Both the position numbers and the translations under genes were made by a program. This document shows positions 2,800 through 60,429 of a stretch of DNA of 64,000 bases, piece by piece (position 1 is the first letter of the stretch; each line of letters opens with the position of its first letter). Below the pieces are notes generated by a model that was given only the letters and a program-made list of their open reading frames with translations, had not been told where the DNA came from and searched no databases. The DNA is from a virus. Lineage: Duplodnaviria; Caudoviricetes. The DNA is taken from positions 8,557-72,556 of the IMG/VR virus record IMGVR_UViG_3300042852_000025, one strand, 5' to 3'.

Positions 2800-2937
2800 G
2801 GCGTTCTCCAGGCCCGCAACGGGCTCAGCTGAAAAGAGGGAAGGGCACAAGCCCCCCCTAAGTGTGGCAGGGAATCCAGAATCCCAAACCTCTGAACTAC
2901 GCTCAGGTGATCTAAGACGCCCGAGAAGAGGTGCCCG

Positions 2938-3201: not shown

Positions 3202-3202
3202 C

Positions 3203-3946
3203 ATGAACGCAATGGAGATCCGCGAGCAGGAACGCCGGCTCGCGGCGCTGACCTTTGACCAGTCGCCGTGCCGGGCCTTCCGGCTCTACCCGGATGACGG
3301 CGACGAGGACGAGTGGATCGACATCAAACCCGGCAAGGATGGGGAAGCCTTCCTGACCTACTGGATGCTCAACGAAGCCCGTCGCCGCTTGCGACTGGTG
3401 GGCCTGTCCGAAGTGGAGCCGGGCGTGTGGACCTTGGCGTTGCATTTCAATGGCGATCGCTGGGCGTCTTACACCCTGCGCGCCGTGGCCTGCAGCAGTT
3501 GGTCGGGTGTGCTGTTCCCGCTGGCGGATATGGTGAAGAATCTGCCGGAGGGGGTGGTGCTGGACCCCGAAGAACTCGACTTCGCCCTGGAGCTGGAGAC
3601 CGATCTGATCGGCCTCGCCCTGCCCGGGGCGAGCTGGACGGTGCTGTGGTTCCTCGCCAGCGAGTACAACGAATACGAAGTGGAACGGCTGGCCAAGAAG
3701 CTGGAGGACCCGTTTCAACGGACGGCCTACCTGCAGGAACGGAGCCCGTTGACCGGACTGCCCCGGCCGGCCCTGACCTTGGAACACCCCAACGCGGTCC
3801 CGCTGGAACCCATTCAGTTCCTGCCGCCGCAACTCGGAATCACGGTCGACCCCGACCAAGCCACCAGCAAGCGCCTGTTCAAAGAACACTGGATCTTGCG
3901 ACTGTTGAACCCACCTGAAAAGGATCACTGCCATGATGCCAAGTAA
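3203..3946 (+). CDS. hypothetical protein
   Basis: ATG 3203 with GAGG SD; typical codon usage. Confidence 0.7.
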   Translation: MNAMEIREQERRLAALTFDQSPCRAFRLYPDDGDEDEWIDIKPGKDGEAFLTYWMLNEARRRLRLVGLSEVEPGVWTLALHFNGDRWASYTLRAVACSSWSGVLFPLADMVKNLPEGVVLDPEELDFALELETDLIGLALPGASWTVLWFLASEYNEYEVERLAKKLEDPFQRTAYLQERSPLTGLPRPALTLEHPNAVPLEPIQFLPPQLGITVDPDQATSKRLFKEHWILRLLNPPEKDHCHDAK

Positions 3947-4385
3947 CGTTCTAAGCCTCGCGGACTTCCGCACCAGACGCGGTTTGCCCGAGGTGTTCCA
4001 GGACACCCGCACGCCGCTGGAACGGGTCGTCGCCCGCTACCGCAAGTTTGACCTGTGCCGTGACAGCCCGGTCCAACCGCTCGCCGCGTTGCGGGTCCTA
4101 GCGGATCGCTGCGCCAAGGCGATCGTCCAGTGGGCCGAACAGGAAGGGCGCCCAGTCGCCGACGCCGCACGCTTCCAGTTCTTCGCCATCGGCGCACAAG
4201 GGGATGAAGTGTTGCAGGTCCGAGTCAGCCGGCTCGGACCTGCAAAAGGACCGTGGCAGGCACTGGAATTTAGAATGGACTGCGACACCCTGCGCGTGGT
4301 GCCGACTGCGTATGCACAGGATGGGGCCGAAGTGTTCAAACCCTTGCTCACGCTGCCGATGTCCGGGTTTTACCGGCTACGCTGA
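3933..4385 (+). CDS. hypothetical protein
   Basis: 150-aa ORF, AAGGA SD, overlaps upstream gene. Confidence 0.65.
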   Translation: MMPSNVLSLADFRTRRGLPEVFQDTRTPLERVVARYRKFDLCRDSPVQPLAALRVLADRCAKAIVQWAEQEGRPVADAARFQFFAIGAQGDEVLQVRVSRLGPAKGPWQALEFRMDCDTLRVVPTAYAQDGAEVFKPLLTLPMSGFYRLR

Positions 4386-4433
4386 AGGTATGCGGCGGAG
4401 GATCACCGTCGCGCATACCAACAGGAAGCCACG

Positions 4434-4958
4434 ATGACCAGAAAGCGCACGCCGTTAAGCGAGTGGTCGAAAGACAACACTCAATTCAAGATCATCAAGA
4501 ACGGGACGCTGGCCTATGAGGCCGTGACCAGCACGAGCCGGGTCCGCGGTTCGTTGGGCCAGCCGTCCACCGTCCTCTACGATTCGATCGCGTTGCGGTA
4601 CAACCAGTGCGAACCGGGCGACCTGTTCCTGATGAGCCTGCCGAACAACCCGGCGCTGTACAACATGCGCAAACATTTCAAGGCTCGCGGGCTGGCGGAA
4701 ACGGACTATCGCGTGTTCCGTCCGTTGTGTGATGAGACGGGCGCACACTTCAAACCCAGCAAGCGCCCGGTCGCGGTTCAACGCCTGACGGCCGCCCGCA
4801 TGAACCCCCTGCAACCCTTCCCGCGAGAAGCCGCGGCGCTGGCAAAAGCCGCCGAGGAACGGGGCGTCGATGCGTTCCTTGTGCAAGATGAAAACCCAGT
4901 AAAACCGGGGCCTGCAGACGAGTTTTCGGCAGGAAATGGGAACGTGGTTAATACTTAA
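4434..4958 (+). CDS. hypothetical protein
   Basis: 174-aa ORF with AGGA SD, followed by a terminator. Confidence 0.7.
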   Translation: MTRKRTPLSEWSKDNTQFKIIKNGTLAYEAVTSTSRVRGSLGQPSTVLYDSIALRYNQCEPGDLFLMSLPNNPALYNMRKHFKARGLAETDYRVFRPLCDETGAHFKPSKRPVAVQRLTAARMNPLQPFPREAAALAKAAEERGVDAFLVQDENPVKPGPADEFSAGNGNVVNT

Positions 4959-5105: not shown

Positions 5106-5357
5106 ATGAATCCGCATTTCCTTCCTACGACCGGCGAAAAATTGACTGACGCACAGCGGTTGGACTTCCTCCGTCAAGTCGTCGAAGCACACAATCTCTC
5201 CCACAACGACCTGGCTCGCTTCACCGGTTATGCCCGTGACAGCGTGTCCGGTTGGTTCACGGAAAAAACCTCGCCGCGCCACCGTGCTGTGCCCGTTCGG
5301 GCGTTTGACCGCCTGCTCAACGAACTGCGTTTGGGTACCGTCAAGGGCAGCAAGTAA
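5106..5357 (+). CDS. HTH transcriptional regulator
   Basis: LSHNDLARFTGYARDSVSGW helix-turn-helix; heads the replication operon. Confidence 0.7.
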   Translation: MNPHFLPTTGEKLTDAQRLDFLRQVVEAHNLSHNDLARFTGYARDSVSGWFTEKTSPRHRAVPVRAFDRLLNELRLGTVKGSK

Positions 5358-5371
5358 GCGGGGGCGGGGCC

Positions 5372-8194
5372 ATGTATCACTACTATCAGCGTTCGGAACA
5401 TGACGCCTGGTTTCTGCTCTCCAGTCAGGGTGAAGAGAACCCGGTGGAGCTGGCCAAGGCGCAGGGCGCGAAGAAACTGACCATCCTCGCCCTGAACCAG
5501 ATGGTCAACGACGGTACCGAGGCCGAGCTGCCGCGCAACCGCGACAAGATCGGCTACCGTGGCCCGCTGTATTTCGACATCGACTGCAAGAATGATTTGG
5601 CTCAGGCCATCACCAGCGGCCAGGAACTGGTCGGCAAACTGACCCGCATGGGCGTGCCGAAAGGCTGCCTCGAAATCTTTCTCTCGGGCAGCAAGGGCCT
5701 GCACGTCCTGGTCAACGAAAGCCTGTTTGGTGCCCGCCGTTTCACCCTGCGCCTGCCGGAAATCTACAAGGAAATGGCCCGCGACCTGTTCGTGATCGGC
5801 CTCGACTATTCCGTGTACAGCAGCGGCCGGGGCAACAGTTTCCGCATCGTCAATCTGCAACGCCATGACGGCAAGTACCGGGTGCCGGTGAGCCCCGAGG
5901 AACTGGCCGAGCTGACGGTCGATCGCTACCACGAACTGGTGAAGGCGCCCCGGGTGGTGGAAGTCGACGACCCGCAGGGGCTGGTGGTGCATGAACTCAA
6001 GGCCATGTTTGAAGAGGCCAAGAAGCGCGTCAACGCCAAGCCGAAGTTGGTGATCATTGCGTCATCAGCCGACATGGAAGCGATCCGTGAGCCGGTCCCG
6101 ACCTGCATCCAGATGCTGTGCGACAGCGACTCGCTGAAAGCCGATGCGTCCTACAACCAGGCCGCCACCCAGTTGGCCGCGTACATCGTGCGTGCCGGGG
6201 TGTCGCAGACGGTGAGCGAAAGCCTGGCGGCGCGGCTGGCCAGCAGCGCCAAGTCGAGCAAGTACAACACCGCCAAGTTGCGCCGCGATCACATCGAAGC
6301 GCAGATCCGCTACGTCGAACACACCCCGACGTTCAGCTTTGGCTGCAACGCGATCCGCGCCCTGCTCAGCAAGCGCCCGTGTGAAGGCTGCGCGATCGAG
6401 GCCGGGGCGAACAAGGGTGGCGACCAGGACGCCGGCCTGTGTGCCTTGGTTGAACCGGACGGCTATTACATCCGCCTGGGGGACGGCAAGCGGCGCATCA
6501 GCAACTTCACCCTGTCGCCGATCGACGTGTTCATTGACGTACCGCAGGACGGTACCGCCCCGCGCCGGGTCGGCACCCGGATGGCGGTGATGAAGGACGG
6601 CAACGAGCTGTCCAAGATCATTTTCAAAGAAGCGGCCTTCGCCAGCCGCTCAGCGTTTCTGAAAGAACTGGAAGGCCTCACTGACCTGACGTTTCAGGGG
6701 TCCGACTTGGAGATTCAGAAAATCAAACTCGCAATTTTCCGGGAGGCTCAGGACGTGGGAGAAATTTTCCAGGTCTACACCGCCGGGGTTCACATGGACT
6801 TCGTCGAAGACATCCCGCTGTTCACCTATGTCGAACCTGATATGTCGGTGAACACGGTCAAGGTGCGCGGCACCCACCAGTTCCTCGGCAACCTGGTCGC
6901 CCGTCCTTACTTTGCGCACACCACCATGCCCGAGAGCGGTGATCAGACCGTGGACAATGTGTTGGACAACCTGCTCAGGATCAACCAGAAACACGAAGTG
7001 GGCATGCTGATTGGCTGGTGCATCGCGGCGCATTTTAAGACGCACCTGATGTACCTCTACAGCCAGTTTCCTGTGCTCGCCCTGTGGGGCAGCGCCGGCT
7101 CCGGCAAGTCGAAGACCGCCGGCCTGGTCACCTGGCTCAACGGCACCGACTACATGCTCAAGGACTCCGGGGTTAGCGCCCCGTCGACCTCGCCCTACGG
7201 CATGCTGGATTACCTGTCGAGCACCACCACGGTTCCCCGGATCATTGAAGAATTCAACAAGTCCAAGATGACCAGCCATGCCTACAAGGACGTGGGCGAG
7301 CGGATCAAGCAGGCCTGGAACGCCGAGTCGACCTTGAAAGGCAAGCTCGGCCGGGGCATGGGTCGCACCGGCGCCGAAGCGGTGGCCATCCCCCTGTCCT
7401 CGCCGCTGTTGGTGATTTCCGAGCAAGAGATTGAAATCCCGGCGATCCAGGAACGCAGCATTCGCGTACACCTGACCAAACAGAAGCGCGGCAAATGCCG
7501 CGAGCCGTTCTTTCTGGCCAGCGAAGGGCGCCAGCACCTGCGCCGGCTCGGCAAGGCCATGATGGCCAAGGCGCTGACCACCACGCCCGAGGAAATCGAA
7601 GTGCTGATGCGCAAGGCGTCGGACCTGCTGCCCAAGGACATGGACGATCGCCCCCGCTACTCGCAGCAGGTGGTGTTGGTCGGGCTGTGGCAGTTGCAGG
7701 CGGTGTGTGAAGAACTGCACCTGTTCCAGGCGCTGAAAACGTTGGCGCCAATCATCGACGTGGTGATCGGCCGTTTCGATGCCCCGGACCAAGGTTATGT
7801 GCAGAGCGAAATCGACCTGGTGCTGCAAAAGCTCGCGATCATCGTGGCCATTTCGCGCAGCATGCAGGAAGCGGGGCAGGGCTACGTGCATCTGGTCGAA
7901 GGCCTACACTACGCAGTGACGCCGGAATACCTGATCCTCGACCCGGTGCTAGGTCATGCCGCCTACACCCGCTTCTGCACCGTCGAGGAACGCACCGCGC
8001 CAGTGATCAGCAGCGGGGCGCAGTTCACCAAGTTGATCAACGAAGAACCCTATTTCATCAAGTACGCGCCATTCGCCGGGTTGGGTGGTGGCCGTCCGAT
8101 GCTCTACCTGTCGCTCAAAGAAATGCAGGGTAAGAACATCGACACCAGCCTGCTCGGCTGGGAGGGTGGTTATGACCGCTCCTACACTAGCTGA
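5372..8194 (+). CDS. primase-helicase (AEP primase fused to a P-loop ATPase)
   Basis: AEP motifs LYFDID and SGSKGLH; Cys cluster (C..C..CEGC); Walker A WGSAGSGKS, Walker B IIEEF. Confidence 0.85.
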   Translation: MYHYYQRSEHDAWFLLSSQGEENPVELAKAQGAKKLTILALNQMVNDGTEAELPRNRDKIGYRGPLYFDIDCKNDLAQAITSGQELVGKLTRMGVPKGCLEIFLSGSKGLHVLVNESLFGARRFTLRLPEIYKEMARDLFVIGLDYSVYSSGRGNSFRIVNLQRHDGKYRVPVSPEELAELTVDRYHELVKAPRVVEVDDPQGLVVHELKAMFEEAKKRVNAKPKLVIIASSADMEAIREPVPTCIQMLCDSDSLKADASYNQAATQLAAYIVRAGVSQTVSESLAARLASSAKSSKYNTAKLRRDHIEAQIRYVEHTPTFSFGCNAIRALLSKRPCEGCAIEAGANKGGDQDAGLCALVEPDGYYIRLGDGKRRISNFTLSPIDVFIDVPQDGTAPRRVGTRMAVMKDGNELSKIIFKEAAFASRSAFLKELEGLTDLTFQGSDLEIQKIKLAIFREAQDVGEIFQVYTAGVHMDFVEDIPLFTYVEPDMSVNTVKVRGTHQFLGNLVARPYFAHTTMPESGDQTVDNVLDNLLRINQKHEVGMLIGWCIAAHFKTHLMYLYSQFPVLALWGSAGSGKSKTAGLVTWLNGTDYMLKDSGVSAPSTSPYGMLDYLSSTTTVPRIIEEFNKSKMTSHAYKDVGERIKQAWNAESTLKGKLGRGMGRTGAEAVAIPLSSPLLVISEQEIEIPAIQERSIRVHLTKQKRGKCREPFFLASEGRQHLRRLGKAMMAKALTTTPEEIEVLMRKASDLLPKDMDDRPRYSQQVVLVGLWQLQAVCEELHLFQALKTLAPIIDVVIGRFDAPDQGYVQSEIDLVLQKLAIIVAISRSMQEAGQGYVHLVEGLHYAVTPEYLILDPVLGHAAYTRFCTVEERTAPVISSGAQFTKLINEEPYFIKYAPFAGLGGGRPMLYLSLKEMQGKNIDTSLLGWEGGYDRSYTS

Positions 8195-10581: not shown

Positions 10582-10649
10582 GCCTCACGGCTAGCTGTGG
10601 TTTGCCGGCGGGCAGTTGCACGCCGGCACTCTCTCTTGTCGTCCGAGGA

Positions 10650-13600
10650 ATGGGGTGCAACGTGAAACTGAATGGACTGGCTCTGCTCGATGTGCGCGGC
10701 TTGCTGCTGCACGCCTACCACCGGGGCACTGACCCCGATGCCAAACTCAGCCCCCTGACTGACAAGCCGGTGAACTCTGCCGGCTACGGTTTGCGCGGGT
10801 TCCTGGACACCTACATCATTCCCCTGCTGTCTGATTTCTCCCCCCTCAACATCATCGCGGTGTGGGATGGGGGCAACACCTTCCGCGAAAGCCTGTTCGC
10901 GGACTACAAGGCCAAGCGCCACGCCGAGGAAAAAGACCCGGCGATCGAAGCGCAGCTGAAAAAGATGTTCGACATGGCCAAGGCGCTGCTGGCCTATGCC
11001 GGCGCCTTCAACGTGCGCGTCGAAGGTGTGGAAGCGGACGACGTGATCGGCGCCTTCTGCCTGCACTTCCCCGAAGTGCTCAAGCTGGTCCACACCGTGG
11101 ACCGCGACCTGACCCAACTCAACGACGACAACACCACCGTGCTGGTGAAGGCCCTGCCGGCGGACGATTTCGAAGGCTACCCAACCCGCTACGTGCGGAT
11201 CTACAAGTCCCTGGTGGGGGACAAGACCGATGAATACGGCGGCGTGCCGCAGGTCGGGCCGGTGGCGTTCAAGTTCCTGGTCGACACCTACGGCTGGGAC
11301 GGCATCGAGCAGCTGGAAGCCTGCGTGGCCAACAACGACTACGCCTTTCTGCTGGAAGCGGTCGAAGCCACCAGCTGCAAGGTGCTGCGCAAAATCTACG
11401 AGAGCCGCAGCACCTGGCGCCTGATGTACACCCTGGCGGGGCTGCACCCGGAGCTGCTGTACGGCGCGCAGGGCCGCACGATCATCCGCCCGGAGTGGTA
11501 CGTGCGCCTCCCCGACGCGACCAAGGTGCTGGACCTGCTGACCATCGCAGGTGACCCGAGCCTGTTCGAACACTTCGCCCCGCACATGCCGACCATGACC
11601 CTGGTGACGCCGGAGAACTGGCCGCAGGTGCATGCCGCTTACGTCGAAGGCTTGCGCGACACCCCGCTGGCCAGCTTCGACTATGAAACCTACGACAGCC
11701 TCGGACACGACTGGTCGGCAGCCCTGCCGGACACCTCCCGCGGCTACGTCGACGTGCTGTCGCAGCGCCTGACCGGGGGGTCGTTCACCTACGGCAGCAA
11801 CCTGCAACACACCTTCTACCTGCCGGTGCTGCACAAGAACACCGCCAATCTGGACAAGGCGCGGCTGGTGGATCTGCTGCTCGACATCGAAGAGGCGCGG
11901 ATTGATTTCGTTGCACACAACGCGAGGTTCGAAGCGTTGGTGACCAAGCTGGCGCTGAACTTCCAGCTGGAGGGGCCGATCTGTACGCAGATGCTCGGCA
12001 CCTACGTCGACGAAAACCTGGAGCAGGGCTTGAAGGCTCACGCCCGGCACTGGCTGAAGTACGACCAGGTCGAATACAAGGATCTGCTGGCCCAGCACGG
12101 CGCCCGGGACATGCGCGACCTCACCGGCGAGCAGGTGACCCACTACGCCTGTGATGACGCCTTCGTCGCGGCGCGGCTGGCGGTGCTGTTCTTCCTGATC
12201 CTCAAGCTGGAACAGCAGTGGGACTTCGCCTACAACGAGGACCGCTACACCCTGCACCCGTTCAACGACAGCTTTGAAACCGGGGTGCAGCTCGACTACG
12301 CCCGCCTGGACGAACTGGCCGCCGCCGATGCCGCGGTGGTCAAGAACAACACCGAACGGTTGCACAGCCTGCTGGCCGAGCATTGCAGCCAGATCAGCGA
12401 CATCGGCGCCGAGGGCTTGAAGAAGGCCGAGGGCGACAACCTGCTCCGGCTGTACATCCACGACAAGCTGAACCGCTCGCAGGCGCAGGCCAAGGTGGCC
12501 GAGACCTACGAACGCTGGCGGCTGGGTTCTGTATACACCCCCTACAGCGAGACGTTCACCCCGGCCGAGTTCATCGCCACGGAGAAGGGGTTCACCCGCG
12601 TGGCCGAGAAGGTCGGGCTGCCGATCGTGATGGGGAGCGTCAGCGGCAAGGGTGTCACCGCCTGGCTGATGACCAGCCGGCAGCACCTGAAACAGCACGG
12701 CAGCACCGACCCGCGTGCCCGCACGCTGGTCGACCTGGTACAGGAAGCGGCCGGCGAGATTCGCAAGCGTGAAGGCGCAGCGTTCCTGTGCCTGAAAGCC
12801 TTCATTGAAACCGAAGTGCTGCACCTGGACGGCGTGCGCGTGATCGAGGGCGACGAACTCAACCTCAACAGTCCCAAGCAAATGCAGGCGCTGCTGTACT
12901 GCAAGCTGCAACTGCCGGTGCGCCTGCGCACCTTTCCACAGAAGGGCAGCCGGCGGGATGAACTCGGCCTGGAAGGCAACCCGTCGACCAACGAGGACGC
13001 GATGCTGGCCGCGATGGCCGAGGACTGCCCCGAAGGGGATTGGCGCCGCGAGGTGTTGCAGCTGCTGATCGGCACCAAAGAGTGCATGACCCGCCAGTCC
13101 CTGTACTACGCCAAGTATCCGCACTGGCGGCACCCCAGCACCGGCGTGGTCCACCCCGGCACCCGCAACTGTGGCACCAAGACCCGTCGCCCGGCCGGCT
13201 CCAGCCTGAACATCCTCGCCGTGAGTAAAGGGCCGCTGCGCTCGATCTTTCTGCCACGGTTCAAGGGGCATGTGATCGTCGCCCTCGACTTCAGCGGCCA
13301 AGAGCTGCGCCTGACCGGCAGCGCGGCCAACGACCCGGTCTTGATCGAGGCCTACACCGGCGGCGGTACCTACGTCGACGAAGACGGCATGACCCGGGCG
13401 CGCTTCAAGGACATCCACGCCGTGACCGGCTGCACCTTCGCCGCCAACGTGCTGGAACAGGCCATGGGGCCGGAAATCCTCAAGCGTCTGTCGTTCGATG
13501 CCACCGGCAGCATGGACTATGAACAGTTCGTCAGCCTGCTGCAGGAAGGCGAGCACGTCTATGAACTGGCCGGCGACCTGGCCCTGCCGCTGGGCAAAAC

Positions 13601-14228
13601 CATCGTCAAGATCCGCAAGATGGCCAAGACCGTGAACTTCCTGATCATCTACGGTGGCCAGGCGTTCAGCATGGGCATGAAACTCGGCGTTCCCGAGCGC
13701 TTTGCCCAGCGCATCATTGACGGGGTGTTCGCCGGCTACCCGCGCCTGGCTCCGTGGCAGAAGGAAACCATCGACTTGGCCCGCCGGCAGGGCTACATCA
13801 CCACGGCCTTCGGCACGCGCAAGCACGTCGACCCCAACATCCTCAGTCGTGACGGCTCGCTGCGGTCGCGGGCTGAGCGCCAAACCGTCAACCACCAGAT
13901 CCAGGGCTGCGCCGCCGACATCCTGAAAAAGGTGCTGACCTCGGCCTATCACACCCACCTGTACGAAGAAACCCACTCCCACCTGATCGCCCCGGTGTAC
14001 GACGAACTGGTCAACAGCGTGCCGATCGACAACGTCTTTGAATTCGCCTCGCGCACCCAAGACCTGATGAACATCACGCCGCCGGGGCATCCGATCCCGA
14101 TGCTGGCCGAGGTGTCCATCGGCCGGAACTGGTACGACTCGGGGAAAAACGAACTGGGGGATCGACCGTCGCAACGCAAGGTTGAGGCGCTGTTCGACAA
14201 GTGGGCCAAAGAGGGGTGGTTAGCATGA
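10650..14228 (+). CDS. polA: family A DNA polymerase with 5'-3' and 3'-5' exonuclease domains
   Basis: 5' nuclease EADDVIG, DRDL and GDKTD; exo I FDYET; motif A DFSGQELR, B RKMAKTVNFLIIYG, C VYDEL; start 10650 or GTG 10662. Confidence 0.95.
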   Translation: MGCNVKLNGLALLDVRGLLLHAYHRGTDPDAKLSPLTDKPVNSAGYGLRGFLDTYIIPLLSDFSPLNIIAVWDGGNTFRESLFADYKAKRHAEEKDPAIEAQLKKMFDMAKALLAYAGAFNVRVEGVEADDVIGAFCLHFPEVLKLVHTVDRDLTQLNDDNTTVLVKALPADDFEGYPTRYVRIYKSLVGDKTDEYGGVPQVGPVAFKFLVDTYGWDGIEQLEACVANNDYAFLLEAVEATSCKVLRKIYESRSTWRLMYTLAGLHPELLYGAQGRTIIRPEWYVRLPDATKVLDLLTIAGDPSLFEHFAPHMPTMTLVTPENWPQVHAAYVEGLRDTPLASFDYETYDSLGHDWSAALPDTSRGYVDVLSQRLTGGSFTYGSNLQHTFYLPVLHKNTANLDKARLVDLLLDIEEARIDFVAHNARFEALVTKLALNFQLEGPICTQMLGTYVDENLEQGLKAHARHWLKYDQVEYKDLLAQHGARDMRDLTGEQVTHYACDDAFVAARLAVLFFLILKLEQQWDFAYNEDRYTLHPFNDSFETGVQLDYARLDELAAADAAVVKNNTERLHSLLAEHCSQISDIGAEGLKKAEGDNLLRLYIHDKLNRSQAQAKVAETYERWRLGSVYTPYSETFTPAEFIATEKGFTRVAEKVGLPIVMGSVSGKGVTAWLMTSRQHLKQHGSTDPRARTLVDLVQEAAGEIRKREGAAFLCLKAFIETEVLHLDGVRVIEGDELNLNSPKQMQALLYCKLQLPVRLRTFPQKGSRRDELGLEGNPSTNEDAMLAAMAEDCPEGDWRREVLQLLIGTKECMTRQSLYYAKYPHWRHPSTGVVHPGTRNCGTKTRRPAGSSLNILAVSKGPLRSIFLPRFKGHVIVALDFSGQELRLTGSAANDPVLIEAYTGGGTYVDEDGMTRARFKDIHAVTGCTFAANVLEQAMGPEILKRLSFDATGSMDYEQFVSLLQEGEHVYELAGDLALPLGKTIVKIRKMAKTVNFLIIYGGQAFSMGMKLGVPERFAQRIIDGVFAGYPRLAPWQKETIDLARRQGYITTAFGTRKHVDPNILSRDGSLRSRAERQTVNHQIQGCAADILKKVLTSAYHTHLYEETHSHLIAPVYDELVNSVPIDNVFEFASRTQDLMNITPPGHPIPMLAEVSIGRNWYDSGKNELGDRPSQRKVEALFDKWAKEGWLA

Positions 14229-51004: not shown

Positions 51005-52708
51005 TTAGGCGATGTCGACCGTGACGCTGAAACCGGCGCTGGTCGTCGTGCTAACAACGAGGGGGAGGACTGGCACGGCCCCGGCCACGGCCACTGACGT
51101 GAGCACACCCGCAGTAGCTGTGAATTCGGCAGGGGGCAGCACCACCAGAGCGGTGAGCCTGGCTGTCACTGCGTTATGGCTGTAAGGGTTGCTCTTGAGT
51201 GCGATCCGCGTGGTCAAAACGGCCGCAGCCCCTGTCTGGTCCAGCAGGGCGGCGCGCAAACCCGCGATCGCCGCCGCCAGCCTGGCAGTCGCCACGCTTT
51301 GGCTACTGGCGTCGACCTTGAGCAGGATCTGCGTGCCGAGGCTTGCCGTTGCATTGGCTTGGCCAGCCAAGGCCGCGAGCAGCCCGATCTGTGTGGTGAG
51401 CCTTGCGGTCGCGGCGACCTGCGCACTCACCGTGGCGACCATGTTGTCGTGCGTGGTGAGGCGGGCCGTGGCTGCACTGACGCCGGAGGCACTCGCCTGC
51501 AGCGGAATCGCGGTGGTGAGCGCGGCGCCCACCGACACTTGGCCAGCGGCGGCGGCCTTTGGATTAATCACTGTGGTGAAGGCGGCACTCACCGTTGTCG
51601 AGCTACTGGCGGCGGCTTTCGGACGGATCGCCGTGGTGAAGGTTGCGCTAGCCGTTGTCGAGATACTGCCGTCAGCCTTGGTGTGGATCGCGGTGGTGAT
51701 GGCAGCACTGGCCGTCGCCGTACTGCTACCGGCGGCCTTCGGACGGATCGCCGTGGTAATGGCGGCGCTGAGAGTGGCTGCACTGCTACCGTTCGCTTTC
51801 GGACGGATCGCGGTGGTGAAAGCGGCACTCACCGTTGTCGTGCTACTGCCGTTCGCCTTCGGGTGGATTGCCGTCGTCAACGCCGAAGTTGTGGTTACGT
51901 GACCGGCAGCGTTCGCCTTCGGACGGATCGCCGTGGTCAACGCCGAAGTTGCGGTCACCTGGTCGGCAGCGTTGGCCTTCGGGTGGATCGCCGTGGTCAG
52001 CGCCGCCGTGCGCGAACACACGCTGCTCAGCGCCGCCGCCAAATGGGCGGCTGTGGATTTGAAGCTCAGGTTGTCGTCGAGGTCGAGGAAGCTCGCGTGG
52101 TTGCTGACCGTGGCGTTCAGCGTGGCGTTTTCTGTGGTGCCGTCGAAAAAGAAGTTCGCCGTATAGGCCGCGGCAGTGCCTTGCAAAAGCGCCGGCCATA
52201 CCTCGCAGATCAGCACATCGCCGTCGAGTGCGCTGACCGTCGTGCCGGGCGAGGTGGCAGAACCCCAGTCGACTTTCTCGGTGTTGGCTGCAGAGGGTGC
52301 TGCAGCGCCCGAGACAGCCGTGGTTGTCCCGGGACCGTCAAACAGCATTCCCACCACCGCACCGGTGGACGGGCGCCACACGTACAGGCAGGTAGACAGG
52401 TACTGGCCCAGGTTCATCTGAGTGTTTGACTGGGTTAACGCGACGTTCAACCGGAAAACGCAGCTCAAGGTTTGGTTGCCGTTCAACGGGGGGCTGGTGA
52501 ATATCCCCATGAACGGCAGTTGCAGGGAGGTGTTTGCCAGCGAGGTGCCGGACAGCGATGTCTGCGCGGTGCCGATGGTGGTATCCATCTTGCGCAGGGT
52601 GCTGGCGCCGGTGGCGCTCCAGCTCGGCGTAGCCGAGGACTGCTCACCTGTCGGAAAGGTGCCCGTCAGGGCGTGAGAGGCCGCGTGCAAATACAGTTTC
52701 GTTGTCAT
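51005..52708 (-). CDS. Ala/Thr-rich fibre-like virion protein with 20-aa repeats
   Basis: repeated LTTAI(R/H)PKA.. units. Confidence 0.75.
   Translation of the reverse strand: MTTKLYLHAASHALTGTFPTGEQSSATPSWSATGASTLRKMDTTIGTAQTSLSGTSLANTSLQLPFMGIFTSPPLNGNQTLSCVFRLNVALTQSNTQMNLGQYLSTCLYVWRPSTGAVVGMLFDGPGTTTAVSGAAAPSAANTEKVDWGSATSPGTTVSALDGDVLICEVWPALLQGTAAAYTANFFFDGTTENATLNATVSNHASFLDLDDNLSFKSTAAHLAAALSSVCSRTAALTTAIHPKANAADQVTATSALTTAIRPKANAAGHVTTTSALTTAIHPKANGSSTTTVSAAFTTAIRPKANGSSAATLSAAITTAIRPKAAGSSTATASAAITTAIHTKADGSISTTASATFTTAIRPKAAASSSTTVSAAFTTVINPKAAAAGQVSVGAALTTAIPLQASASGVSAATARLTTHDNMVATVSAQVAATARLTTQIGLLAALAGQANATASLGTQILLKVDASSQSVATARLAAAIAGLRAALLDQTGAAAVLTTRIALKSNPYSHNAVTARLTALVVLPPAEFTATAGVLTSVAVAGAVPVLPLVVSTTTSAGFSVTVDIA
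51280..52010. repeat. degenerate 60-bp tandem repeat (coding)
   Basis: TTCGG(A/G)(C/T)GGAT(C/T)GC(C/G)GT(G/C)GT recurs every 60 bp. Confidence 0.8.
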
Positions 52709-52747
52709 CCCTACACCTCGACGGCCCCTCGACGAAGGTGGAGTGGA

Positions 52748-53188
52748 TTAGTTGTCGATCTGGAACGTCAGGTCGCCGATGGCAAACACTGGAGCCGGGT
52801 CACCGTTGTTGACCGTCTTGCTGACCGTCAGTGCGCTGTAGAACAGCATGTTGCCCGAGGTCGACGCATCCATCACGGCCATACCGGTCACCGTGCCCCA
52901 GTTGGCGGTCGGTGTCGGAAAGGTGATCGCGGCGTTGTTCGACGTGGTGCCGCCGGTGCCGCTGGACGCGGTCGTGCTGCCCGCACTTTGCGTGCCGGCC
53001 CAGTTGGCCAGGCTGTTGGTCACCGCGACTCGCGCATAACTGCCGCCGGTGGCCTCGGTGCCCCCCGAGGTATCGGTAGGGTTCGCTGTAAACAGGGCGA
53101 TGTAGAGCGTGCTCGGAAAGGTGTAGGCCTGGTTACGAAACAGCTGGTCGATCAGCTTGTTTTCCAGGTAGTCGGTCATTGCGCCCAT
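52748..53188 (-). CDS. phage virion (fibre-associated) protein
   Basis: DYLENK..D..F...YIALFT..P...E..GG.YARV...ITFP.PT..WGTVT...DA.T.GN.L motif. Confidence 0.8.
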   Translation of the reverse strand: MGAMTDYLENKLIDQLFRNQAYTFPSTLYIALFTANPTDTSGGTEATGGSYARVAVTNSLANWAGTQSAGSTTASSGTGGTTSNNAAITFPTPTANWGTVTGMAVMDASTSGNMLFYSALTVSKTVNNGDPAPVFAIGDLTFQIDN

Positions 53189-53319
53189 GAAGCACCCCAA
53201 AGTAGGTCGTGTGAAGAACGCGGTCCTACGTTGGGGCCGCTTGCATTAAAGCGTAGGTTACGACCCCGGATTTCGCTTAAATTTCATAGCGCTAGGGGTC
53301 TAAACCAGCACTCTTGGAC

Positions 53320-53610
53320 CTACGCCGCGTGTTGCGCAGTGACCACCGCCGTGAGTTGGCCAACCCGTTCCGCCAGGCGGGACAGGCGCTGCTCAAAGAT
53401 GTGCTCAAACTCGCCTTTGCCTTCCTCGCGCAGGGCGGTCAGGGCGTCGGCCATGGTCATCGGTACGATCAACGCATGGGTGCTGTCAGGCAGGCTGGCC
53501 AGGTGGGCCTGGGCTTCGTCGCGGTGGGTGTAAACCCCCGCCACCACAACGGATTGACGTACTTCGTCCAGCCGGTAAAGCACCAGCGCTTCAAGGGTGA
53601 TTTCGCTCAT
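53320..53610 (-). CDS. hypothetical protein
   Basis: 96-aa ORF. Confidence 0.6.
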   Translation of the reverse strand: MSEITLEALVLYRLDEVRQSVVVAGVYTHRDEAQAHLASLPDSTHALIVPMTMADALTALREEGKGEFEHIFEQRLSRLAERVGQLTAVVTAQHAA

Positions 53611-53711
53611 GGGGAGACCTATGCGGATAATCAGCTCGGCCGTCTTCGGTTAGGTGAAACACTCGCGGCCTTGGGTTAAAGACTAGGCGAGGATCGCGAA
53701 AAAATTTTACG

Positions 53712-53731
53712 TTGCTTCGTTTTTGAGGCAA
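53712..53731. promoter_or_regulatory. palindromic operator (second copy)
   Basis: TTGCTTC-GTTTTT-GAGGCAA. Confidence 0.6.
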
Positions 53732-53902
53732 CAGAGGCCTCAAAAGCGGGTGTTTTGCCCCCCTTTGAAACTTTTTTCACTATTTTTTCGATTGTGCTGG
53801 GAACCTTTCCTGACAAGGCTTTGGCGCCATGGATTGTCCGACAAACGGTGTTTTTCGATGGCACTTTTGTGAATGTCAAGGGGGGTAAAGACGGATGCTT
53901 GG

Positions 53903-53932
53903 TTGTCTTTTTACCTAAATGCTCCGTATCCT
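53903..53932 (+). promoter_or_regulatory. sigma70-type promoter (candidate)
   Basis: TTGTCT-18nt-TATCCT. Confidence 0.5.
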
Positions 53933-53944
53933 ATTGACCGTAAA

Positions 53945-54057
53945 CGAAAAAGCCCCCGCTGTTTAGGCGAGGGCTTTTCGGACTGGTGGGTATTGCAAGT
54001 ACCGCCAGCCAAGGTCTCGGGGAATTCTGCTTAAACGGGCGGGATACGAGACCGGGT
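53945..54057 (-). ncRNA. putative ~110-nt antisense RNA
   Basis: promoter at 54093-54064; three stem-loops; ends in GCCCUCGC/GCGGGGGC-UUUUU terminator. Confidence 0.6.
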
Positions 54058-54063
54058 CTAAAA

Positions 54064-54093
54064 AGTATACGCGAAAATTGATCGCGTGTTCAA
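54064..54093 (-). promoter_or_regulatory. sigma70 promoter of antisense RNA
   Basis: TTGAAC-18nt-TATACT on the - strand. Confidence 0.65.
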
Positions 54094-54662
54094 CCATGCC
54101 CGTCTCACCCCCGTAACCCTTCCATTGCGCGTCTGGATCAAGATGGGGCGTTCGTTCGCCTATTGGGCCGCAGTGCGTAAAACCACCCACAAGGGGATCT
54201 TCTCAGGGTGGTCGGTATAGCCGGGAGGTACGAACCTGGAAACAGGTCGGGAAGGCAATGGCAGGGCGGCGTATTACCCAGACACAGGCGCCGTCGACTG
54301 TCCCAAAACCTACCCCCGCCGTGCGCCGAGAAGGGCCGAGGGCGCTTGTAACGCATAACCTCGAAAGCGCGGAACGCCAGCTGGGAGTGGGAGCCGGGAA
54401 ACCGGGATTTCCCCATTGCGTGGAGTTGTGTGAAAGGCCTTTTTTCAGGGGCTGGACGCAGGGGCTCGCACGCCAGTGGGAGCAAGAAGGGGGCCAGCTT
54501 TCGGCGGCCCTTGCAAGCGCTCTAACCCCCACCTCGGGGAACGAACAGGGGTCTGAACGATTTAATAATATTACGGTTAGCATCTGTTCAGATTTGTACG
54601 AGAAATGTAACGTGCTGTGCCCAGTACCAGGACAAATCCCAAAAACAACAAGGAGAAGGACA

Positions 54663-54857
54663 ATGTTGATTCTGACCCGCCGCATTCACGAAACCATCAT
54701 CGTTGGCGACGACATCCGCATCACAGTGCTTGGTGTCAGCGGCCTGCAGGTGCGCATCGGCATTGATGCGCCCAAGGGCATCGAGGTCCATCGCGAGGAA
54801 ATCTACAACCGCATTCAGGCCGAAAAAGCTGAACTCGCGAATGTGGACCTAGACTGA
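54663..54857 (+). CDS. csrA: CsrA/RsmA translational regulator
   Basis: [47 protein letters not shown]. Confidence 0.95.
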
Positions 54858-54887
54858 ACGGATAGCTTCATCACAGGGAGTCGCCGC

Positions 54888-55496
54888 TTGAACACGCCTA
54901 CCCAACACAGCACCCCGAAAGGGCTGTACCAGTACGTCGGCAAAGACGACACCTACGAGTTGCTGGGTGACTGCATTGGCGCCGGTACCGATCGGGGCCA
55001 CGACACCAAAATCTACCGCAACATCCACACCGGACAGTTGCACAGCCGGTTTGCCGATGACTTCGAAAACCGTTTGGTTCGTATCGGTGAGCGGGTTGAG
55101 TTTTCCTACAGTGAGGCTCCCCAACCCTACAACTCCGGTCATCAGATCGAAGGGGTGGACCGCTGCCACACCGTGCAGGAAATGATTCACTCCCTGCTCG
55201 ATGCACACCCGGCGGTGCTGAAATCGGGAGCCGCCCCGTTGATCGAGCAAGCCCGCACGGCCATCTTTCAGGCCCATCAGCTGATCGGTCTGATGGACGA
55301 CACCGTCGTTTCCAGCGGTGAAGACGACACCGATCTGCTGCGCGAAGCGCTTGAGCTTTTCGAGTACGTCACCTGGCACGATGGCCGCTACCGTCAAGAG
55401 TCCAGTTTGAAGTTTCAGACCCCGGCGCAGAAGTTGGTGAGCCGGCTGGCCGAACGCCTCGGGGTTGTGCCGTATCAGTCGCTCAAACAAGAGTAA
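54888..55496 (+). CDS. hypothetical mosaic protein
   Basis: GGGAG SD, TTG start; appears to join several small phage domains. Confidence 0.65.
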   Translation: MNTPTQHSTPKGLYQYVGKDDTYELLGDCIGAGTDRGHDTKIYRNIHTGQLHSRFADDFENRLVRIGERVEFSYSEAPQPYNSGHQIEGVDRCHTVQEMIHSLLDAHPAVLKSGAAPLIEQARTAIFQAHQLIGLMDDTVVSSGEDDTDLLREALELFEYVTWHDGRYRQESSLKFQTPAQKLVSRLAERLGVVPYQSLKQE

Positions 55497-59304: not shown

Positions 59305-59384
59305 ATCTCTCCCTGATACCCGTAAACATTGGGCAAAACCCACGTTTAACCGCGAATCTGTCCCTGATTGCCCCTTGAAAACCA

Positions 59385-59420
59385 CCCCCATTTTCCACGC
59401 TGAAACGTGGAAAATGGGGG
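59385..59420. repeat. perfect 15-bp inverted repeat
   Basis: CCCCCATTTTCCACG-CTGAAA-CGTGGAAAATGGGGG. Confidence 0.85.
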
Positions 59421-59532
59421 TTCCGACGTGATGAATCACATGAAGAACGCCCGATAGCGTATTAAAAACATACGCATACTTATGATCACATCACTTTGAT
59501 TCGGTTGGGGTTTTTTCCGGGGGAAAACCCCC

Positions 59533-59541
59533 TGTGGATAA
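59533..59541 (-). promoter_or_regulatory. DnaA box
   Basis: TTATCCACA consensus adjacent to iterons. Confidence 0.85.
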
Positions 59542-59542
59542 C

Positions 59543-59624
59543 ACCGCGAATCTGTCCCCCTTTGACCGCGAATCTGTCCCCTTTAAACCGCGAATCTGTC
59601 CCCTTTAAACCGCGAATCTGTCCC
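59543..59624. repeat. replication-origin iterons (4 x 22-bp period)
   Basis: ACCGCGAATCTGTCCC at 59543, 59565, 59587 and 59609; fifth copy at 59349; AT-rich DNA follows. Confidence 0.95.
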
Positions 59625-59718
59625 TGTACTTCGTAAAAAACCGTTATAAATCAATCTGTTGCGACGGCGAAAACAAGGTTTAAAACAAGAAAAACAAGCT
59701 CTAAAAGGACTGCTCGGG

Positions 59719-60429
59719 CTACACAATCAGTTCCAGTTGCTGTTCGCAGCTGGCTTTGGGACGGATTGTGAAGAGGAATCCGGCGATGGCGCGGCCATTG
59801 CGTCGAGGTTCTACGGTCACGGTCAGATCCGTGTGGCAGTTGACCTCTTCGATCGCCGGGTCCAGCACCCGTTTACGCAGGTCCTTGACGTTGGGGTACT
59901 TGTCGCCGAGGTCGAGCATGCCCCGCAGTTGCTCCAGGGTGCATTCTCGTGCTTTGAGCCGGATAAACTGGGCCATCAGCTCGTACAGGCGAATCGCGTA
60001 GAAGGTCGAAAGCTTGCCGATCTGACGCAACTGATACGAGGTGAATTCCTTGTTGAGCATGGTCAGGTGCGGAACCACCTGCGGGGAAAACCCCAGCTGG
60101 ATACAGCCGCGCCCTTCCATGTAGTCGCACAGGTAGACCCAGCGCATGCGCTTGACCAGCTTGCCGCCTTTGTAGTTGCGGATGTCCCGTGCATAGAGGC
60201 GGTTTGCCGCGTCTTTCATGGCGAAGTAAGTGCTTTTCGGGTCGGTCCCAAACACCTCAGAGAACACATCGGCCCGTATCATCAGCACCCCGTCCTTGGG
60301 CAGCGGTTTTCGGGGGTCGAGCATGGACGCGGCGAGTATCACCAGCCGCTTTTCATTAAGGGTCAGGGTGTGGGCGGCTTCGATCAGCCGGTTTGATTGG
60401 GTGACGATGTTGCGCAAGGCGGTGCTCAC
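59719..60429 (-). CDS. repA: plasmid replication initiator (Rep_3 family, pPS10 RepA-like)
   Basis: VTQSN.LIE..HTLTLNEKRLV..AAS..D.RKPLPKDG; FTSYQL..IG.LS.FYA.RLYEL..QF. Confidence 0.95.
   Translation of the reverse strand: MSTALRNIVTQSNRLIEAAHTLTLNEKRLVILAASMLDPRKPLPKDGVLMIRADVFSEVFGTDPKSTYFAMKDAANRLYARDIRNYKGGKLVKRMRWVYLCDYMEGRGCIQLGFSPQVVPHLTMLNKEFTSYQLRQIGKLSTFYAIRLYELMAQFIRLKARECTLEQLRGMLDLGDKYPNVKDLRKRVLDPAIEEVNCHTDLTVTVEPRRNGRAIAGFLFTIRPKASCEQQLELIV

Follow-up and report, generated by a model that had tools for sequence, protein, structure and literature searches.

Can a large phage carry an origin of the ColE1 kind, in which one RNA primes DNA synthesis, a second, antisense RNA holds it in check, and no initiator protein takes part? 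The question is raised by an ORF-free stretch in the window, by which we mean the whole 64,000-nt piece of DNA analyzed here (Caudoviricetes record IMGVR_UViG_3300042852_000025, positions 8,557 to 72,556). An earlier note on this DNA had seen a module resembling ColE1 RNA II/RNA I at 53903-54600 and had offered two readings, a second, RNA-primed origin of a phage-plasmid or an antisense-controlled leader of the csrA operon. Computational analysis established the homology and boundaries of the RNA unit, its structure with covariation, its distribution, and the gene content of the phages that carry it. On these data, window positions 53920-54486 are probably a Rep-protein-independent, RNA-primed, antisense-controlled origin of the ColE1 functional type, used for plasmid-state replication of a phage-plasmid. 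Judged by sequence, it has its homologue in the replicon of small plasmids of Pseudomonas, with the Rfam motif PAGEV as the core of RNA II (Table 1).

Table 1. Features of the RNA unit and of related genes in the window (positions are those of the window)
Feature	Positions	Strand	Basis or remark
Phage Pol I-like polymerase, 5'-3' exonuclease plus family A polymerase	10602-14228	+	Pfam DNA_pol_A 7e-54, 5_3_exonuc_N 2e-20
Predicted RNA II promoter, TTGTCT-18-TATCCT	53903-53932	+	Sequence; transcript would start at ~53939-53941
Conserved ORF-free unit	53920-54486, 565 nt	+	Homology limits 53920/53942 (start) and 54483/54486 (end)
Predicted RNA II preprimer, ~545 nt	53940-54486	+	Homology with plasmid and phage copies; putative primer
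Predicted antisense RNA I, ~114 nt, three stem-loops, U-tailed terminator	53944-54057	-	Rfam RNAI, fold, covariation
Stem-loop 1	53948-53978	both	Inverted repeat; RNA I terminator on minus strand, first RNA II hairpin on plus strand
Stem-loop 2, candidate specificity (kissing) hairpin	53983-54009	both	10 of 11 helix 2 pairs changed on both sides
Stem-loop 3	54013-54053	both	Helices 3 and 4; outer stem conserved, inner stem and loop variable
RNA I promoter, TTGAAC-18-TATACT (or TGAACA-17-TATACT)	54064-54093	-	Promoter scan, 9/12
PAGEV motif (RF03037), structured RNA II core	54127-54379	+	80.3 bits, gathering score 61.1, E 9e-18, full model 1-185
Unit 3' end: U-rich hairpin 54436-54453, AGGGG, terminal hairpin 54464-54483	54436-54486	+	Homology stops here
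csrA homologue, 64 aa	54663-54857	+	Pfam CsrA 85.5 bits; syntenic in clade records G001, G002, G003, and G005
Five 22-bp iteron-like repeats beside Rep_3	59327-59624	-	Direct-repeat family
Rep_3 initiator gene	59722-60429	-	Pfam Rep3_N 1e-31, Rep3_C 2e-20

The two opposing promoters described in the earlier note are both present. The plus-strand promoter agrees with the consensus at 8 of 12 positions; it is weak by that measure, and it was missing from our scan list because the scan threshold was 9/12. In the eight aligned phage-borne copies (seven from the clade plus locus L030), its TATCCT was invariant and the TTGT of the -35 element was kept, with a variable spacer. The minus-strand promoter was recovered by the scan, and its aligned place in plasmid copies reads TGGACA-17-CAGAAT. 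Altogether, the scan gave 3 promoter-like sites (0.7 ± 0.8 in shuffles), and a repeat search revealed no direct repeats in the RNA unit. The predicted start of RNA I, near 54057, is 117 nt from that of RNA II. This is the geometry of ColE1: a preprimer of ~550 nt whose first ~110 nt are overlapped by RNA I, with neither an initiator gene nor iterons in the origin. The module is shorter than the earlier note had drawn it, since the conserved unit stops near 54486 and not at 54600. Protein coding by the unit was considered and rejected because no ORF frame is conserved (stop-free stretches vary in frame and extent among copies) and because indels in the aligned copies are not multiples of three.

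Does the predicted RNA I have the structure expected of an antisense regulator? The three 5' stem-loops of the earlier note are there, the second of them ending at 54009. The region folded at -53.5 kcal/mol on the sense strand (z -4.65) and at -42.5 kcal/mol on the antisense strand (z -3.31), and on each strand 0 of 200 shuffles folded as well. Each of 19 homologues folded individually gave the same three-hairpin layout over 111-119 nt. On the minus strand, stem-loop 1 would be the U-tailed terminator at which the antisense RNA was said to end, for a predicted length of ~114 nt. Covariation in the RNA I region, counted on a covariance-model alignment, which leans towards the model, was extensive: 95.1% of cells were paired and 26 of 37 pairs had changed on both sides, values reached by 0 of 500 shuffles, while slid controls gave 31-49% paired. 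For the helix of stem-loop 1, 99.0% of cells were paired and 6 of 10 pairs had changed on both sides; the outer stem of stem-loop 3 was paired in 97.6% of cells in a structure-blind alignment. RNAalifold failed on these sequences: on the whole 616-column alignment, long-range pairs broke stem-loops 1 and 2, and on the 126-column MAFFT alignment only 17 pairs were retained, with the inner stems out of register. We therefore used the covariance-model alignment for RNA I and the structure-blind count for the RNA II body.

The Rfam RNAI model was covered in full at the predicted RNA I with 28.4 bits (E 0.0082), below its gathering score of 47; ColE1 itself scored 73.8 bits. In the reverse direction, covariance model R1, built from the RNA I region of the unit, found the ColE1 RNA I locus with 29.5 bits (E 3e-4 in 370 kb). 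By covariance models, then, the two RNAs find each other reciprocally, though weakly. Variation within the RNA I overlap was also informative. Stem-loop 2 exists in two allele-like forms, one in the window, L015, and G003 and the other in G001, G002, and G005, a spread discordant with overall similarity. Of the 21 columns in which the window differs from G001, its nearest relative, 15 fell inside the 114-nt overlap (Fisher p 5e-7); between the window and G003 the figure was 10 of 122, and the clustering holds for some pairs only. Together, the clustered differences and the two forms of stem-loop 2 look like variation in specificity.

Downstream of the RNA I overlap, PAGEV was the sole gathering-level Rfam match in the 64-kb window. 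Among the relatives, it scored 80.3 bits in G001, 87.1 in G005, and 66.6 in G002, with no match in G003 at E ≤ 0.1. The earlier note had listed six hairpins in this part, and they fared differently. Hairpin 54182-54212 is PAGEV helix P2, in which 6 of 7 pairs covary, and an inner helix of PAGEV accounts for 54265-54295; the window also contains 54234-54247 and 54394-54405, but the MAFFT columns preserve these two poorly, and 54489-54512 and 54552-54592 lie outside the conserved unit. The P2 loop was identical in the 22 other aligned copies and altered in G002 and G003, which could reflect drift in some phages. The first PAGEV helix carries a 14-nt insertion relative to the Pseudomonas plasmid copies. 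In a structure-blind alignment of the RNA II body, 89.7% of cells were paired and 22 of 49 pairs had changed on both sides; 0 of 500 shuffles reached the observed values on 4 of 5 measures. The Rfam search and the test for covariation across homologues that the earlier note had proposed both gave results in favor of the module. The stretch GCGTGGAGT (54418-54426), singled out in the same note, was identical in 18 of 24 aligned copies, all Pseudomonas plasmid copies among them. The 3' end of the unit is a candidate region for the switch from RNA to DNA. Its "AGGGG plus hairpin" is common to the unit, to the PAGEV loci of Vibrio, and to a second phage lineage; the fold of 54436-54486 alone was not unusual (z -1.51).

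Where else is this unit found? The plasmid search matched 12 records, all from Pseudomonas, and the best match, pLKYC.ZH, aligned with window positions 53942-54483 at 70% identity. Twenty-four copies of the unit align collinearly, and full-length nhmmer matches support collinearity of the whole unit with the Pseudomonas plasmid replicons, in which PAGEV scored 105-114 bits. The plasmid records L001 and L002 (three copies) repeat the arrangement of the window, with an RNAI match below threshold ~60 nt upstream of PAGEV and on the other strand; pPMA4326D (L003) had no RNAI match at E ≤ 1. On the P. fragi NL20W plasmid (4,480 bp), the match lies inside a 1.5-kb CDS-free gap, and none of the 8 annotated CDS is a Rep, a statement that rests on plasmid annotation incomplete by the collection's own description. 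We do not claim absence of Rep for pA22BJ2 and its close relative pA4J1, because "REP" is listed among the modules of pA22BJ2 (PMC6896180). A pattern scan of genome contigs returned 57 loci, mostly by chance; nhmmer confirmed the unit in 11 only (10 Pseudomonas and one labelled Pedobacter), and PAGEV was absent at the pattern site in L060, L064, L072, L097, and L098. One genomic copy sits on a 2,179-bp contig with a stated coverage of 4565. PAGEV was also present in 10 of 151 Vibrionaceae genomes. The Rfam family is defined as lying on plasmids of Gammaproteobacteria, whereas the record here, which has terminase, capsid, protease, and tail genes, is that of a phage.

We then asked about the phages themselves. 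The unit is present in all five records of the clade (G000, G001, G002, G003, and G005), whose genomes are ~82-84 kb and which are all metagenomic. In G003, the most diverged, only 53920-54484 matched (80%) and the intergenic flanks had no match; the unit appears to be kept in these phages by selection. The unit is also carried by another phage lineage, which is unrelated to the clade and has Terminase_3 and an SU10-type portal; locus L030 retains only the RNA I part. By TerL, the clade has no close cultured phage relative (best identity, 33%), and none deposited as a plasmid, since the sole TerL match in PLSDB was a Methylobacterium record at 25% identity; among cultured phage genomes, blastn with 53600-54670 as query gave no match. 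Metagenomes containing parts of the stretch came from soil, rhizosphere, root, and wastewater only, with a share of ≤0.31.

Gene content gives the clade the makeup of phage-plasmids, with virion and packaging genes as well as plasmid replication and partition genes and no integrase. The record encodes TerL, capsid, an S49 protease, and a tail fibre. A tyrosine integrase was found in 0 of 5 clade records, and the only serine recombinases were small resolvases (ORFs of 201-268 aa), present in 3 of 3 complete genomes. A ParA-like gene, not adjacent to the unit, was found in four of the five; neither a ParB nor a parS was identified. The Pol I that the earlier note had ascribed to the phage has the Pfam domains of a Pol I-like polymerase, and PolA is found in 4 of 5 records; this polymerase is a candidate for extending the RNA primer. 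RNase H of family PF00075 was found in 0 of 5. The unit had been called a "second" origin. Our counts reverse this order: because the RNA unit is present in 5 of 5 records and the Rep_3/iteron replicon in 1 of 5, namely, this one, the RNA replicon is core and Rep_3 with its iterons is accessory. The presence of so close a copy of a plasmid origin in all nearest relatives suggests that these phages persist in the host as plasmids.

How might such an origin work? A ColE1-type sense/antisense replicon in a phage-plasmid, as the earlier note had proposed, is supported by PAGEV, RNAI, plasmid collinearity, covariation, and gene content, from which we infer transcription, priming, antisense control, and a plasmid lifestyle of the phage. 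The plus-strand promoter would initiate an RNA II of ~545 nt, the first ~115 nt of which would fold into the three stem-loops and the remainder into the PAGEV structure. At the conserved "AGGGG plus hairpin" at its end, the transcript would remain hybridised to its template, where host RNase H would cleave the hybrid and a Pol I-type polymerase, either the host's or the phage's own, would extend the cut RNA. The opposing promoter would yield RNA I. Kissing contacts between its loops and the complementary ones of nascent RNA II would block maturation of the primer, and this block would determine copy number and incompatibility. For the phage clade, the most likely role of the unit is to replicate the prophage in a plasmid state. 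Four sequencing runs were compared as assembled contigs, which carry no information on strand, start, or level. Contigs of X19, the one run that is clearly RNA, covered 52332-53233 and resumed at 54568, with nothing over 53336-54504, and assembled contigs of wastewater runs labelled "RNA?", which may be DNA, covered the unit at 88-95% likeness.

Could the unit instead serve virulent growth? As a lytic origin, RNA II would prime leading-strand synthesis by the phage Pol I-like polymerase at the start of the lytic cycle and would have no part in maintenance. We regard this as unlikely. Several features would suit it: the unit is located where the late and early gene blocks diverge, the clade encodes a PolA with 5'-3' exonuclease, a primase-like protein, SF1 and SNF2 helicases, and Mre11/Rad50-like proteins, and the lineage with the SU10-type portal likewise carries the unit. 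In addition, the nearest cultured phages (33% TerL identity) are not known to be lysogenic. A negative antisense regulator with allele-like variants, however, is a device for copy number and incompatibility, for which a lytic burst has no need; the homologues on 4-10-kb plasmids are probably maintenance origins, and a plasmid state is what the absence of an integrase, together with the ParA-like gene and the small resolvase, would indicate. The lytic and plasmid-maintenance roles are mutually compatible and do not exclude each other.

The second reading of the earlier note, that of a csrA leader, stood in one part: csrA follows the unit in all five clade records. Unit and gene are both on the plus strand, with no strong plus-strand terminator predicted between them, so that the plus-strand RNA could be the csrA 5' UTR, its read-through or stability controlled by RNA I, and neither RNA would take part in replicating the phage DNA. 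The position of csrA is at odds with the conservation of the unit, which stops at ~54486, 177 nt short of the gene, and the intervening stretch is unconserved in G003. GGA motifs are of the kind bound by CsrA proteins, and they were not enriched (20 versus 15.9 ± 2.9; 62 of 500 shuffles were as high). As the unit occurs alone on small plasmids with other neighbors and in the second phage lineage, outside any csrA context, a csrA leader is not its general role, and we consider it very unlikely that this explains the unit in the phage. Hardly more credible, and if anything less so, is a captured plasmid module that is dispensable for phage replication and whose RNA I, or the whole unit, displaces or excludes small plasmids or superinfecting relatives of the same replicon type: the ~70% identity to co-occurring Pseudomonas plasmids, the tendency of some pairs to differ mainly within the RNA I overlap, and the role of RNA I as the incompatibility determinant of MRB and ColE1 plasmids (PMC3035462) would fit it, and L030, with its RNA I part only, would suit it better, but the whole 565-nt unit is conserved, PAGEV body and 3' hairpin included, beyond the RNA I gene, and 3 of 4 full or near-full genomes have no other recognisable plasmid initiator.

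With the unit read as a plasmid-state origin, the orphan Rfam motif PAGEV gains a concrete candidate function as the structured core of a ColE1-like primer RNA, and a probable origin is identified for a set of small Pseudomonas plasmids without annotated Rep. A survey of ColE1-like plasmids reports only one in Pseudomonas and adds that distant variants could not be ruled out (PMC8683028). Origins of prophages that rely on RNA only would be extended from mycobacteriophages to phages of Gram-negative bacteria, in two lineages; elements of this kind would escape phage-plasmid surveys based on Rep proteins. For Pseudomonas vectors, a protein-free origin of only 565 bp, with compatible variants already present in nature, would also be a useful part. 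A wider and more doubtful idea, which we put forward only tentatively, is that the PAGEV-type unit is a portable, protein-free origin cassette that unrelated phage lineages have acquired repeatedly to become plasmid-prophages, with RNA I loops that diversify through exchange of alleles and so let related phages and plasmids coexist in one cell. On the same idea, the combination of a ColE1-type three-stem-loop RNA I with a PAGEV body as in Vibrio MRB-like replicons would be a missing link that makes ColE1 and MRB one ancient superfamily rather than convergent, and the adjacent phage CsrA might be a Rop-like regulator acting on the RNA II loops.

How does the unit compare with known systems? Most parABS cluster A mycobacteriophages that lack an integrase rely on an RNA-based origin for the prophage (Wetzel et al. 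2020, PMC7157519). In these temperate phages, the lack of an integrase is combined with a partition system and a Rep-less, RNA-expressing origin for an extrachromosomal prophage, the combination proposed for the present clade, and the minority that carry RepA instead parallel the Rep_3 in one of our five records. In contrast to the clade, their hosts are Actinobacteria, their sequences are unrelated, and the parts of that paper dealing with the origin describe no antisense RNA I/RNA II pair; the origin here is homologous to a known plasmid family, and its ParA gene is not adjacent.

With ColE1, which has an origin of ~550 bp (PMC8683028) and an RNA I of ~110 nt (PMC3035462), the unit shares the lack of an initiator protein, a predicted sense RNA of ~550 nt, and a predicted three-stem-loop RNA I of ~110 nt starting ~110-117 nt inside. 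Despite its length and stem-loops, the RNA I scores under the Rfam cut-off of the ColE1-type RNA, no rop gene was noticed, and no similarity to ColE1 could be detected in the body of RNA II; PAGEV had no match in ColE1 at E ≤ 10. The echo of ColE1 that the earlier note had heard at the 5' end is real but weak: in nhmmer, ColE1 matched a 22-copy profile of the unit with only 2.6 bits (E 0.038), at ColE1 positions 627-676, the 5' end of RNA II.

The MRB (marine RNA-based) plasmids of Vibrionaceae, to which they are reported to be restricted, were described by Le Roux, Davis and Waldor in 2011; their origins of ~500 bp replicate autonomously with no Rep, and RNA I represses replication (PMC3035462). 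The unit resembles them as a putative ORF-free origin of ~500 bp with two overlapping RNAs predicted on opposite strands. In MRB, the small RNA also sets incompatibility, and small sequence changes yield compatible variants. The MRB RNA I is ~68 nt long with two stem-loops, versus ~114 nt with three here, which sets the unit apart from that group. Upstream of PAGEV, the Vibrio loci have an A-run/terminator hairpin, one more stem-loop, and an opposing promoter, the two-hairpin form; going by the published description of MRB RNA I, we infer that these loci are MRB replicons. Intermediate in form, the unit is relevant to the question of common descent or convergence of ColE1 and MRB replicons.

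The closest counterpart is the replicon of the Pseudomonas plasmids (P. fragi NL20W, pLKYC.ZH, and pPMA4326D); for PAGEV itself, a role in replication is only suggested in the account of Weinberg et al. 2017 (PMC5737381). The setting differs, in that the unit here lies in a phage genome of ~80 kb beside csrA and has different -10 and -35 hexamers. The two are nevertheless collinear over ~545 nt at ~70% identity, with the parts in the same order: the RNA II 5' end with the RNA I terminator, the three stem-loops, the opposing promoter, PAGEV, the U-rich hairpin, AGGGG, and the terminal hairpin.

A search of all 64 kb at Rfam gathering thresholds returned one match, to the PAGEV motif (RF03037), at 80.3 bits (cut-off 61.1). 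It falls in an ORF gap of the window, whose source record (IMG/VR, 72,556 bp) is 89% complete. A permissive Rfam scan of 53400-55000 revealed a match to RNAI (RF00106), the ColE1 antisense RNA, that spans the model from end to end but, scoring 28.4 bits (E 0.0082), does not reach the cut-off of 47; it sits exactly where the earlier note had placed an antisense RNA. We call the predicted plus-strand preprimer RNA II and the predicted antisense RNA over its 5' end RNA I. The unit holds no iteron-like repeats and no reading frame conserved among its copies. A stretch ahead of PAGEV shows 12-nt long-range complementarity (11/12) to the conserved GCAATGGCAGGG block, which could be an alternative RNA II pairing.

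Positions of the unit, its parts, and neighboring or replication-related genes (window coordinates unless stated)
Feature	Position	Strand	Detail
ORF gap	53611-54662		1.05 kb, between leftward structural genes and csrA homologue
Rightward promoter	53903-53932	plus	TTGTCT-18-TATCCT
RNAI match	53944-54060	minus	
Opposing promoter	54093-54064	minus	TTGAAC-18-TATACT
Long-range complementarity	54117-54128 and 54255-54266		
PAGEV match	54127-54379	plus	
Covarying PAGEV helices	54182-54212 and 54265-54295		
Poorly conserved hairpins	54234-54247 and 54394-54405		
Hairpins beyond the unit	54489-54512 and 54552-54592		
csrA homologue	54663-54857	rightward	Pfam CsrA, 85.5 bits
Iteron-type replicon	59327-60429		
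Rep_3 initiator	59722-60429	minus	WH1 and WH2 domains
DUF932 protein	locus L005, contig 2428-3285		upstream of window, early region; 1.5e-48
ParA-like ATPase	locus L005, contig 4221-4943		upstream of window, early region

The three stem-loops proposed for the first ~115 nt of RNA II fold on both strands, with z-scores of -4.65 (sense) and -3.31 (antisense) and 0/200 shuffles as good for either; on the minus strand, the first of these hairpins doubles as the U-tailed terminator proposed for the antisense RNA. The opposing promoter scored 9/12 in a promoter scan. For the rightward promoter, the -10 hexamer is invariant and the TTGT of its -35 is kept in eight phage-borne copies, across which the spacer varies, but it reaches only 8/12 and is unlisted by the scan. 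Of the six downstream hairpins that the earlier note had listed, two are covarying PAGEV helices, two exist but are poorly conserved, and two lie beyond the limits of the conserved unit.

Folded singly, 19 homologues each formed three hairpins over 111-119 nt with unlike stem sequences. A covariance model of this region, built from nine copies, had 29 matches across 370 kb of loci. In the model-based alignment of the RNA I region, 95.1% of cells were paired and 26/37 pairs had changed on both sides; 0/500 shuffles reached these values, and sliding the partners by 1-3 columns reduced pairing to 31-49%. That alignment was fitted to the model and so is biased toward it. When the whole unit was aligned with MAFFT, blind to structure, the PAGEV helices together with the terminal hairpin and the outer stem of stem-loop 3 had 89.7% paired cells (35-44% in slid controls), with 22/49 pairs changed on both sides. 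On four of five measures, 0/500 shuffles equaled or exceeded the observed value; on the fifth (further pair types), 138/500 did. The loop of PAGEV helix P2, CAAGGGGATCT, is identical in all 22 other aligned copies and altered in two related phages (G002 and G003), in which the stem still pairs and no compensating change was found elsewhere.

Where else does this unit occur? Cultured phages gave no blastn match to the region, and plasmids gave 12 records, all from Pseudomonas, with every match lying where no gene is annotated. The top match, pLKYC.ZH, aligns to 53942-54483 at 70% identity. Eight CDS are annotated on the plasmid of P. fragi NL20W (4,480 bp): a RelE/ParE toxin, a CopG-family protein and hypothetical proteins. 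None is a Rep, and the match falls in a 1.5-kb CDS-free gap. PAGEV scores 105-114 bits in Pseudomonas plasmids. Three module copies on two of them (L001 and pLKYC.ZH) have a sub-threshold RNAI match ~60 nt upstream of PAGEV on the opposite strand, as in the window; in pPMA4326D no RNAI was found at E <= 1. The entire unit is collinear among copies: an RNA II 5' end that is also the RNA I terminator, three stem-loops, the opposing promoter (TGGACA-17-CAGAAT in plasmids versus TGAACA-17-TATACT in the window), PAGEV, a U-rich hairpin, and AGGGG followed by a terminal hairpin, where similarity ends. Genome assemblies hold further copies on small Pseudomonas contigs, one of 2,179 bp with a recorded coverage of 4565. 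The 9.2-kb pLKYC.ZH (NZ_CP141900) carries two RNA replicon copies (433-1069 and 5186-5822), which suggests a cointegrate formed from two compatible variants.

Differences between copies can cluster where RNA I overlaps RNA II. When the window is compared with G001, its closest relative, the 114-nt overlap holds 15/21 differing columns (Fisher p 5e-7), and several changes there are compensatory; between the two pLKYC.ZH copies, the figure is 19/39 (p 5e-5). Not every pair shows this: between the window and G003, no part is better conserved than the overlap (10/122 differences). Stem-loop 2 has two forms, one in the window, L015 and G003 and the other in G001, G002 and G005, a distribution that cuts across overall similarity and would be expected if incompatibility determinants were exchanged.

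A TerL search identified 20 related viral loci, and five related records were examined. PAGEV scores 80.3 bits both in the window's record (72.6 kb) and in G001 (81.7 kb, terminal repeats, 100% complete, TerL identity 97%), 66.6 bits in G002 (84.4 kb, terminal repeats, 100%, TerL 96%) and 87.1 bits in G005 (44.6-kb fragment, TerL 86%). In G003 (83.9 kb, 100%, TerL 83%) the Rfam model failed, and window 53920-54484 matched at 80% DNA identity, with no match to either intergenic flank (53611-53919 and 54485-54646). Conservation in phages therefore stops where similarity to plasmids does, as one would expect if selection acts on a discrete unit. The unit is absent from G004, a more distant phage (TerL 44%). 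Contig L030 (IMG/VR, TerL 85%) keeps the RNA I part alone: at 2128-2336 the promoter and three-stem-loop region are retained and the downstream sequence is unrelated to PAGEV. L030 has either another RNA II body or just a remnant holding RNA I. Four IMG/VR contigs (L009, L017, L018 and the 4.4-kb L020) carry a third subtype (PAGEV 90-98 bits). Two encode a Terminase_3 large subunit, one of these with an SU10-type portal (3e-115); the other and a third contig encode a virion structural protein. The unit lies a few kilobases from the Terminase_3 and SU10-type portal genes. L020 apart, these contigs represent a phage lineage different from and unrelated to the window's.

No tyrosine integrase and no RNase H (PF00075) were found in the five records. 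A ParA-like ATPase (62-73% identical) and a Pol I-like polymerase with 5'-3' exonuclease each occur in 4/5, and a small resolvase (ORFs of 201-268 aa) in 3/3 complete genomes; if placed as in G001, the resolvase gene of the window's phage would lie just past the record end. Neither ParB nor parS was found. A small ORF after parA, without Pfam match, could encode a ParB-like adaptor. Rep_3 occurs in the window's record and in 0/4 others, adjoined by five 22-bp iteron-like repeats (three tandem and two further, just beyond the 3' end), so the RNA unit is the clade's constant replicon, and the iteron-type replicon, which is complete, is an extra that looks like a recent acquisition. There is no close cultured relative (best TerL identity 33%) and no close relative deposited as a plasmid; a Pseudomonas-like host is inferred solely from the plasmids that share the unit.

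The unit belongs to the PAGEV-type plasmid replicon group. The best-supported reading is that it is probably the plasmid-state origin of a phage-plasmid; the earlier note's finding is real, and its main interpretation, a ColE1-type RNA replicon in a phage-plasmid, is supported. A lytic origin is an unlikely alternative. A leader of csrA, the gene next downstream, is less probable again, and an interference module marginally less than that. Sequencing runs were compared as assembled contigs without strand information, and in the only clear RNA run no contig covered the unit. A literature search, with most subscription journals and supplements outside it, found no published account of a unit of this kind in any phage of Gram-negative bacteria.

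The window's clade, with its constant RNA unit and, in one record, an extra Rep_3, mirrors the parABS mycobacteriophages, of which 105/110 are described as being without RepA and using an RNA-based prophage origin (PMC7157519). From its sequence, the unit is predicted to work like ColE1. The three-stem-loop model matches ColE1 (NC_001371) over its full length at 643-744 (29.5 bits, E 3e-4), in the same place as RNA I per Rfam (645-749, 73.8 bits); together with the RNAI match in the window this is reciprocal, though weak. In contrast, the RNA II bodies are dissimilar: PAGEV has no match in ColE1 at E <= 10, and ColE1 aligns to the whole-unit profile at the RNA II 5' end only (2.6 bits). By RNA II homology and the RNAI cut-off, the unit is not a ColE1 member. 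PAGEV exceeds its cut-off in 10/151 Vibrionaceae genomes, mostly on small contigs; one Vibrio match (G006:C1:1328538-1328743, 82.7 bits) is embedded in a >1.3-Mb contig and may be an integrated replicon. Upstream of Vibrionaceae PAGEV are an A-run/terminator hairpin, a second stem-loop and a promoter facing the other way, with a predicted antisense RNA of ~66-68 nt. These loci fit the marine RNA-based (MRB) plasmids as described in print. In MRB plasmids, an ORF-free ~500-bp origin is reported to suffice for replication, and a 68-nt RNA I of two stem-loops to repress replication and set incompatibility (PMC3035462). Le Roux et al. argued that the similarity of MRB and ColE1 is convergence (PMC3035462). 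The unit has a PAGEV body together with an RNA I of ~114 nt and three stem-loops, and is thus an intermediate form, which bears on the question of MRB/ColE1 convergence.
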